Shown here piece after piece: positions 10,816 through 12,189 of a stretch of 33,020 nucleotides of DNA. The number at the start of each line of letters is the position of its first letter. Position 1 is the first letter of the stretch. The DNA is taken from positions 1 to 33,020 of IMG/VR virus record IMGVR_UViG_3300017613_003292; one strand, given 5' to 3'. A model generated the notes under the pieces. The model worked only from the letters and a program-made list of their open reading frames with translations, ran no database searches and was not told the origin of the DNA. The DNA is from a virus (lineage: Duplodnaviria > Heunggongvirae > Uroviricota > Caudoviricetes). A program made the position numbers and the translations under genes.

Positions 10816-11215
10816 TGATTTATATTATACGAATGATTTTAATGCCAGTGATGATTTATAATTTTCGGGTGATTTTAATCCAGCCGATGATTTATACATC
10901 TGGTGTTGGTTTAATCCTCTTTTTGATTTATAAGCCCCGAGTGATTTCAATTTCGTTTTTGATTACATTCCGCATGATTTTTATTTAAACTATGATTTAT
11001 AATTTTTGGATGATTTTAATTGAACCAATGATTTATACGCCTGTGCATGATTTTAATGTTACGGGTGATTTATATGCAACTCATAATTTTAAAGAATTTT
11101 CTGATTTATATCAAAAAAATGATTTTAATTTGTGTTTTGATTTATAATCATCACGTGATTTTAACCAGCCCGATGATTTATATGTTTTCAATAGTTTTAA
11201 GCAGTTTTTTGATTC
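10816..11215 (-). repeat. TIGR-like dual-repeat guide-RNA array: about 11 units of 36 nt (repeat 9 + spacer 9 + repeat 9 + spacer 9)
   Basis: Plus-strand TGATTTATA-type repeats at 10816, 10852, 10888, 10924, 10960 (degenerate), 10993, 11029, 11066, 11102, 11138, 11174 alternate with TGATTTTAA-type repeats at 10834, 10870, 10906 (degenerate), 10942, 10975, 11011, 11048, 11084, 11120, 11156, 11192. Spacers are variable and 9 nt (one 10 nt; one unit 3 nt short). The array abuts the stop codon of a Nop-domain gene; strand inferred from that gene. Confidence 0.88.
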
Positions 11216-11216
11216 T

Positions 11217-12107
11217 TTACGCTACCTTATCTAACTCATCTTCCAGTGTCCAGTAAAATGGCGGAATACGATTGTCTGGTAAATGTCCTTTTATGATTTC
11301 CATATACAGTCCGTCTGTTGATTCTTCTTCCAGGAATCTGGCCACATGCCAGAAATGACTGAGCACTAGTTTCGCTGTTTCATGCCCGGCAGCATTATGG
11401 ATATGCCCATCTGTCCATGGCTCTTCTCGGTCTTCATTTTTCTTGAGTTGGGTTTCCTTTTGTTTCAGCATGTAGTCTTTGTAATGATGTGCCGGTTGGT
11501 TTTTGTTGACCCCCTGCCAGATGTGATACCCAATCAGTTTTCCTTTTGAGGAAAAATTTGATTGTTTGCCGGACTGCCTCTTCTGAACCATTCCAGTTTC
11601 AGGATCACACGCCCTGCCCATGTAGGCCCACCATTTGCTGACATTGGGGAAAGTCTTGCGTGTTATGCGATGATGAAGGAGTCCTTGGCCGCTGGCCTTC
11701 TTGCCGCATGCTGAACAATTGAATGACTTGACCTTTGAACCGTCTTCTCTCGTTTCTTTTGTCTCGGTATCAAGGTCGGCTCCGCATTCTTTACAGATGG
11801 CCGTAAATTTGTAGTAGTACAGCATGATTAAGTTTGCGGCTATGAACGGTCCAATGCCTGGCACTTGTTTCATCCATTCGGTCCATACCGGCCAAAATTC
11901 AAGCTGGGCGAGCAGTTCCCGTGACAATCTGTCTTTTGTAATCTTCAATTCTTTGACGGTCTTGTTTGACTTGACACTTCCGGGGTTGAGTGAATGTGCG
12001 CGGTTGATGACCTTTGTACGCAATTTTGTCACGTCGTCATAATCCTTGGCCAGTGATGATAATGTTTTGATAATACTTTCGTTGTTTGGTGCCTTGAGGT
12101 GATTCAT
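11217..12107 (-). CDS. tasA: TasA-like Nop/IS110-C-terminal-domain protein (no RuvC or HNH) with zinc-finger insertion
   Basis: N-terminal coiled coil (KLRTKVINR), PVWTEWMKQVPGIGPFIAA, SKWWAYMG, GHIHNAAGHETAKLVLSHFWHVARFLE. CKEC...CSAC insert; no N-terminal DEDD RuvC domain; flanked on both sides by dual-repeat units. Confidence 0.8.
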   Translation of the reverse strand: MNHLKAPNNESIIKTLSSLAKDYDDVTKLRTKVINRAHSLNPGSVKSNKTVKELKITKDRLSRELLAQLEFWPVWTEWMKQVPGIGPFIAANLIMLYYYKFTAICKECGADLDTETKETREDGSKVKSFNCSACGKKASGQGLLHHRITRKTFPNVSKWWAYMGRACDPETGMVQKRQSGKQSNFSSKGKLIGYHIWQGVNKNQPAHHYKDYMLKQKETQLKKNEDREEPWTDGHIHNAAGHETAKLVLSHFWHVARFLEEESTDGLYMEIIKGHLPDNRIPPFYWTLEDELDKVA

Positions 12108-12117
12108 TTGTTTGTCT

Positions 12118-12189
12118 CCTTTTATACCGTTTGATTAATTTTAACGCCGTAGATGATTTATAAAGCCGTTTTGAATTTAATTCGTCCCG
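12118..12189 (-). repeat. Upstream mini-array (about 2 units) of the same TIGR-like repeats
   Basis: CCTTTTATA(12118)-9nt-TAATTTTAA(12136)-9nt-TGATTTATA(12154)-9nt-TGAATTTAA(12172)-9nt, keeping the 18/36-nt register. Confidence 0.75.

Follow-up and report, generated by a model that had tools for sequence, protein, structure and literature searches.

TIGR-Tas systems constitute a young field (2025-26) in which the detection of arrays is still anchored to motifs. TaTIGR-TasR, from the Thermoproteota archaeon LB_CRA_1, is an experimentally characterised example with the edge repeat TGCGAGCCA and the loop repeat TGAAACCCA (PMC12045711), and the TIGR-TasR complex is available as PDB 9MTY. Characterised TasR arrays use CCA as box C and UG as box D, in which the first C of the former is base-paired to the G of the latter, and a further pair forms in the edge repeat (PMC12045711). 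In vitro, the TaTasR tigRNA takes the form (G)AGCCA-spacerA-TGAAACCCA-spacerB-TGCG, and its target is spacer A followed by the reverse complement of spacer B (PMC12045711). In the phage-borne SpTIGR-TasH system, SpTasH trims pre-tigRNA with the catalytic pair Y289/H296, which is carried on a flexible loop (PMC13421893). The locus considered here lies in the first 33,020 nucleotides (nt) of the viral record IMGVR_UViG_3300017613_003292 (hereafter the window), which make up the first third of a single phage-like contig of 97,020 base pairs (bp; 41.4% G+C), and consists of a tasA gene and two AT-rich repeat arrays. The initial annotation, which had named the CCA and UG motifs correctly, proposed a new TIGR subtype in which TasA may have co-evolved an altered recognition of its RNA. 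The locus is very probably a functional phage dual-repeat TIGR-TasA system with a derived AT-rich repeat spelling, and not a separate subtype. On sequence comparison, the AT-rich repeats are probably lineage-specific drift of the canonical TGCGAGCCA/TGAAACCCA pair, with compensated pairing changes that the protein would tolerate.

Array anatomy and the tasA product

The downstream array (10816..11216, minus strand) is predicted to encode 11 tigRNA units, its orientation being taken from homologous arrays. Read on the minus strand from 11216 to 10816, it comprises 23 nine-base repeats on an 18-nt lattice with a 36-nt period, in which edge-type TATAAATCA alternates with loop-type TTAAAATCA and 9-nt spacers lie in between, and it spans the interval between the stop codon of the 296-amino-acid (aa) tasA gene and the next gene's ribosome-binding site. 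TCA forms the 3' end of 20 of the 23 repeats (the other three end in CTA, TTA and CCA), TA starts 10 of the 12 edge repeats, and TT starts 10 of the 11 loop repeats; one loop copy, TTAAACCA, has kept CCA. The box geometry of these repeats is 2+4+3, each spacer being preceded by a 3-nt box and followed by a 2-nt box, with 4 nt between the boxes; the literal CCA/UG boxes are replaced by UCA with UA (edge) or UU (loop). Three local indels interrupt the lattice: the spacer at 11047-11038 is 10 nt long, 3 nt are missing near 10969, and at 10914-10897 an 8-nt loop is combined with a 10-nt spacer. The last two fall within units u6-u8 (10897-10932 and 10960-10983, minus strand), where the 3-nt loss shortens an edge repeat to TAATCA. 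Units u1 and u9 carry near-duplicate A spacers, TCGGGCTGG and TCGGCTGGA.

The upstream mini-array (12118..12194, minus strand) holds two units, bounded by the upstream gene's stop codon and the tasA ribosome-binding site. It opens with an edge repeat, AATCG, that is truncated at its 5' end and overlaps this stop codon, continues with the loops TTAAATTCA and TTAAAATTA and one full edge repeat TATAAATCA, and closes with the 3'-truncated edge TATAAAAGG, which runs into the tasA ribosome-binding site. Edge repeats are truncated at three of the four array ends: the first of each array retains only its 3' half (AATCA or AATCG, with stop-codon overlap), and the last of the upstream array retains only its 5' half (TATA...). 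Terminal edge repeats that keep only the half needed for a tigRNA are part of the published description of TIGR arrays. The pattern TWWAAATCA-N9-TWWAAATCA, with at most one mismatch, occurs 17 times in the window, always on the minus strand and always within the two arrays, against 0.01 occurrences expected from shuffled sequences. A position-for-position match to the TaTasR repeats identifies TATAAATCA as the edge repeat and TTAAAATCA as a loop repeat that has kept its A-rich core, and the array ends agree with this assignment. The annotated layout, a TIGR array on the tasA sense strand with TCA upstream and TA or TT downstream of the spacers, is therefore confirmed by the repeat lattice and by the sense-strand position of homologous arrays. 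An Rfam search of positions 9500-17500 returned nothing at the gathering score.

The tasA open reading frame (P0001; 11217..12107, minus strand) sits between the two arrays and encodes a Nop-domain Tas protein that lacks a nuclease domain. It matches the TasR chain 9mty_A over residues 17-96 and 152-286 (phmmer E 1.8e-18), and a profile of 32 family members matches TasR at E 1.5e-41 and TasH at E 1.6e-15. Since the Nop alignment begins near residue 17, there is no nuclease domain and the protein is classed as TasA. An AlphaFold2 model of TasA (predicted local distance difference test score, pLDDT, 86.7; predicted template modelling score, pTM, 0.86) consists of a coiled coil, the Nop domain and a zinc-ribbon insert, with nothing else; its best Foldseek matches are TIGR-TasR and six TasH entries, followed by the bridge-RNA recombinases IS621 and ISCro4. 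Pfam gave no Nop, IS110 or other significant match to TasA at the thresholds used, and the protein matches phrog_4285, which is annotated as 'transposase'.

The zinc-ribbon-like insert of TasA (residues 99-150; 11694-11808, minus strand) comprises about 55 beta-rich residues with a CxxC...CxxC pattern whose four cysteines, C105, C108, C131 and C134, are invariant, and it is present across this TasA family, where it may serve as a DNA wedge or make some other contact. It lies between the helix-hairpin-helix motif and the conserved F-x3-S-K-W-W-A-Y, a position at which TasR has six residues. Y268 and H275 of TasA align with Y289 and H296 of SpTasH at identical spacing; H275 is invariant in the family and Y268 is conserved in at least 90% of members. 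The loop bearing this dyad is the only low-confidence stretch of the TasA model, as fits the flexible loop described for TasH.

Relatives, phylogeny and repeat covariation

Relatives of TasA were collected by a protein search (48 proteins at 29-57% identity), by locus searches (51 viral and 9 genome contigs) and by protein look-up (4 further contigs); about 60 relatives, at 35-58% identity, have arrays on the tas sense strand. The genome contigs derive mostly from metagenome-assembled genomes of Desulfobacterota, together with one Methanoperedens. Arrays with a 36-nt period lie on the tas sense strand, upstream and/or downstream of tas, in nearly all relatives, and their most frequent repeats are TGCGAGCCA or TGCGAGCGA at the edge and TGAAACCCA in the loop. 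A maximum-likelihood phylogeny built from 50 proteins of the family pairs the window protein with that of L061 (support 100/99), makes the two sister to L064 (95/95) and nests this pair among members with canonical repeats. A megablast search of 12 kb against phage records found no match, and tblastn of TasA against phage records found one distant Gordonia phage protein only.

L061 is a 6.8-kb metagenomic contig (JGI 3300033143, Ga0366829_1032229) whose TasA (P0002) is 57-58% identical to that of the window. It carries both AT-rich window repeats, in three arrays and with more units, and the two loci share no spacer at 8 or more of 9 positions. Conserved repeats combined with fully turned-over spacers are the signature expected of a guide array under selection. 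Minority repeat copies in L061 (TGTAAATCA, TATAAACCA, TTAAAACCA and TGAAAACCA) retain TG and CCA, so that single arrays mix TG with TA in box D and CCA with TCA in box C. The third, three-unit array of L061 (1035-1150) lies between the terminator of a second tas gene and the partner gene, and has the loops TTACAACCA, TGAAAACCA and TTAAAATCA side by side, with canonical and AT-type boxes mixed. Intermediate spellings occur in neighbouring branches, namely TGTAAACTA/TTAAATATA in L062, TGCGAGCTA/TTAAATATA in L064 and the loop TAAAAATCA in L008. Separately, the period is 37 nt in L008/L009 and L052, whose edge repeat, TGCAAGACCA, is 10 nt long, and L008 pairs this edge with the TAAAAATCA loop, a second, independent appearance of the UCA/UA box pair.

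Relative to TGCGAGCCA, the edge repeat of the window has undergone two compensatory swaps at once, from G2-C7 to A2-U7 and from C3-G6 to U3-A6. Of the distinct edge types in the family, all 12 preserve the 3-6 pair, whose C-G has turned into U-A in four or more separate branches, and 11 of the 12 preserve the 2-7 pair. Of 11 distinct loop types, 9 preserve their 2-7 pair, with G-C replaced by U-A in L005, L062 and L064 and by A-U in L008; the pair is absent from the loop repeat of the window and from two other loop types, those of L043 and L051. Double compensatory changes, again counted over distinct repeat types, appear in several separate branches. Position 8, the middle of box C, takes all four bases across the edge repeats of the family, and U1 and A9 are almost invariant. 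In the window box C, C8 and A9 are unchanged, so that UCA differs from CCA at the pairing base only, and the edge repeat shows the matching change in the partner base. This pattern suggests that what is constrained in this TasA clade is U1, A9 and two base pairs, and not the letters CCA/UG. The G+C content of the repeats rises with that of their surroundings (Spearman rho 0.58, not phylogenetically corrected), but loci of similar G+C content keep canonical repeats, and base composition is therefore not the whole story.

Neighbouring genes, predicted guides and alternative readings

The genes around the locus all lie on the minus strand. Directly downstream, a gene for a 336-aa protein assigned to phrog_10079 (9787..10797, minus strand) has a ribosome-binding site that abuts the last edge repeat. 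Directly upstream of tasA stands a conserved partner gene of 217 aa (12193..12846, minus strand), 32% identical to the gene at the same position in L061. Homologues of the partner adjoin tas in about 40 of 64 family loci, usually in the order tas-array-partner-array. The partner is confidently modelled as an all-helical protein with a 50-residue C-terminal helix (a long coiled coil). Its best structural match is the ParB DNA-binding domain 6s6h (Z 6.0 over 95 residues), which falls below the noise level for helical proteins; Foldseek returned non-significant Noc, VirB and KorB rows, and Pfam gave no ParB match. On these models, the partner may be the ParB-like 'TasParB' of Faure et al.

A second Tas-like gene (P0050, 304 aa; 16138..17052, minus strand) encodes a distant Nop-domain protein and belongs to the context rather than to the array system proper. 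Its similarity to TasR (9mty) has E 1e-7, and that to phrog_4285 has E 2.5e-25. As the protein stops right after the last Nop helix, it lacks the Y/H processing loop, a feature shared with stem-loop-type Tas proteins. Its family numbers about 1,400 relatives, the closest of which (58% identity) is L061:28-966, on the same contig as the sister TasA; the two-Tas arrangement is therefore conserved. Upstream of this second gene (17053-17165, minus strand), CCA-N9-AG, a possible guide unit for the second Tas, occurs three times within about 100 nt, AG being the published box D of SpTIGR, and the RNA fold of this interval is no better than that of shuffled sequences (z -0.04).

By homology to the characterised systems, the minus-strand string of genes would be transcribed through both arrays, and a TasA dimer would bind each 36-nt unit, with one protomer on the edge repeat and the other on the loop repeat. 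The Tyr268/His275 loop would then cut near the middle of the edge repeat (at about TATA|AATCA), releasing tigRNAs of the form AAUCA-spacerA-UUAAAAUCA-spacerB-UAUA. The ends of these tigRNAs are predicted to pair through A2-U7 and U3-A6, where canonical tigRNAs use G2-C7 and C3-G6. Spacers A and B would pair with opposite strands of an 18-bp site made up of spacer A followed by the reverse complement of spacer B. Because TasA has no nuclease, the expected outcome is RNA-guided DNA binding, likely leading to transcriptional repression and possibly involving the ParB-like partner. RNA-guided repression has been shown for other TasA proteins (10.64898/2026.09.09.750476).

Several observations weigh against a functional and otherwise ordinary dual-repeat system. 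U2 and U7 of the window loop repeat cannot pair, although its A-rich core is kept, and because these bases sit where most relatives pair, the loop contact of the window system should differ in some way from theirs. Both AT-type TasA proteins deviate at six residues conserved in canonical relatives (K67, K114, P175, G197, K233 and P267, the last neighbouring the catalytic Y268), and some change in RNA contacts may follow, although this is a lead only. Indel-bearing or degenerate units (u0 and u6-u8) may be dead. In a search of the 97-kb genome for self-targets (spacer A, 0-2 nt and the reverse complement of spacer B, with up to three mismatches), there was none at zero or one mismatch, and the remainder were self-hits to the arrays or AT-rich noise. 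When every parsed unit from 48 loci was compared with the genome and with all loci, no cross-target above chance emerged; seven one-mismatch matches, within a factor of a few of the roughly two given by a rough chance estimate, included no window unit and formed no pattern. Finally, in contrast to the layout usually published, no terminator was found after either array, and both continue into the ribosome-binding site that comes next; with the co-directional genes and the last repeat abutting a ribosome-binding site, this places the arrays inside a polycistronic string.

It has to be asked whether the AT-rich UCA/UA-UU scaffold is a natural orthogonal guide format, in which drift was kept because it stops guides from cross-loading between two Tas effectors, since the window phage and L061 both carry a second, distant Tas paralogue that lacks the Y/H loop. 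Such a format is unlikely; if real, it would provide a ready-made two-channel TIGR system, with a dual-repeat Tas that reads only U1, A9 and a base pair. The proposal of a distinct subtype implies that TasA has been re-specified to UCA/UA-UU and that its guides are no longer interchangeable with CCA/UG guides. In its favour, two phages have conserved the repeat spelling although the identity of their TasA proteins is only about 58%, the six residue differences are common to both, with one beside the catalytic tyrosine, the second Tas paralogue resident in both could select for orthogonality, and neither of two large contig collections contained the exact repeat pattern. This proposal nevertheless appears quite improbable. 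The period, spacer length, edge/loop alternation, truncation at three of four array ends and Y/H dyad reproduce the published dual-repeat layout, and the Tas phylogeny, the check that the annotation itself had called for, places the protein within a TasA clade whose usual repeats are those of TaTasR. The change of motif is mostly a compensated base-pair swap, and the G+C content of the repeats tracks that of their surroundings. Divergent boxes have, moreover, already been published, and those who described the family do not take the box letters as diagnostic: according to Faure et al., box motifs "could diverge" across TIGR arrays, and examples are the CCN box C of FpTIGR and the AG box D of SpTIGR (PMC12045711); Xu et al. 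give CCA/CGA/CTA/CAA with TG/CG for stem-loop arrays and CUU/UG in PateTasR (10.64898/2026.09.09.750476). Motif divergence by itself is therefore not new. Co-evolved recognition is not supported either, since L061 mixes box letters within single arrays and the window has its one CCA loop, which points to tolerance over re-specification, and the four bases at position 8 together with the 2/7 covariation suggest that only U1, A9 and pairing are read.

A drifted but functional guide array also has to be set against a role at the level of DNA, in which the repeats are 18-bp iterons bound by a ParB-like partner in a centromere-like manner, or against a decaying relic. A conserved and possibly ParB-like partner gene does abut the arrays, several units are degenerate, and no targets were found. 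Both are very unlikely, because the repeats have been kept while the spacers turned over completely between the window phage and L061, most copies are exact, tasA is intact with its catalytic dyad, and arrays with the ancestral repeats are experimentally processed into tigRNAs (PMC12045711). Transcription from the plus strand, an objection that the annotation had anticipated, is the least credible alternative. Its repeats UGAUUUAUA and UGAUUUUAA do begin with TG, giving a canonical UG box D beside an odd box C, and the lattice statistics are symmetric between the strands. The neighbouring genes, however, are all on the minus strand, no plus-strand promoter was found pointing into the array, the tas sense strand is the one that bears the homologous arrays and the TaTasR array sequenced experimentally, the sense-strand repeats, with their A-rich loop core and retained C8 and A9, fit the canonical ones better, and the truncated terminal edges fit sense-strand units. 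The G-U wobbles of relatives (TGCGAGTTA, TGCGAGTAA and, in L061, TGTAAATCA) would be A-C mismatches on the opposite strand; they work on the sense strand only and therefore independently favour it as the RNA.

Detectability and comparison with described systems

The annotation had also suggested that searches keyed on canonical motifs could miss this array, and this is plausible. TIGRFinder is described as requiring, for a seed, four or more perfect boxC-N9-boxD intervals that share one motif pair and lie 4 bp apart. When this seed rule was emulated with all 1,024 box C/box D pairs on both strands, no pair formed a chain of four or more at the locus; the longest chain was three, because box D alternates between TA and TT and indels break the lattice, and a degenerate T[AT] box D reached five. 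Of 20,096 tas loci, only about a third received an array annotation from the published finder. Both window repeat words are absent from the accessible supplements of the Science paper, and the exact three-repeat pattern has no match in viral_contigs or in metagenome_contigs; the spelling appears rare and possibly uncatalogued. A looser TWWAAATCA pattern gave 170 loci, which were rejected as simple tandem repeats with no tas gene nearby.

The locus leaves the general picture of TIGR-Tas systems unchanged. Its interest resides in the covariation series, the unpaired U-U loop position and a likely blind spot of motif-anchored finders. Together with its relatives, it provides a natural series from TGCGAGCCA/TGAAACCCA to TATAAATCA/TTAAAATCA, marked by repeated compensatory swaps and sense-strand G-U wobbles, which should be useful for better array finders and for the design of minimal or orthogonal tigRNA scaffolds.

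Among the described systems, TaTIGR-TasR shares with the window a homologous Nop domain and the 36-nt unit of edge repeat, 9-nt spacer A, loop repeat and 9-nt spacer B; its repeats are identical to the usual repeats of the window's family, and the edge 2-7 and 3-6 pairs are kept. The window TasA differs in lacking RuvC and in its zinc-ribbon insert of about 55 aa, and its repeats TATAAATCA/TTAAAATCA include the loop U-U. SpTIGR-TasH (Salicola phage CGphi29; PDB 9W03/9W04; PMC13421893) is likewise a phage-borne dual-repeat system with a Y/H dyad for autonomous tigRNA processing, and its non-canonical AG box D illustrates that box letters vary between loci; it is distinguished by an HNH nuclease, 8-nt spacers and only distant sequence similarity (the profile match at E 1.6e-15).

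TasParB-type TIGR-TasA loci (Faure et al. 2025, methods, fig. S14) resemble the window in their nuclease-less TasA and in having arrays upstream, downstream and between tasA and the partner, and the window partner has a comparable helical, DNA-binding-like domain with a C-terminal coiled coil. Their repeats are 10 nt long, compared with 9 nt in the window, and the ParB kinship of the window partner is weakly supported (Z 6.0). The partner lies upstream of tasA in the window, whereas it lies downstream in most relatives. L061 has both AT-rich repeats and common elements of gene order (second Tas, partner, array, tasA, array), and differs in its entirely different spacers, its three arrays, its greater number of units and its TG and CCA minority variants.

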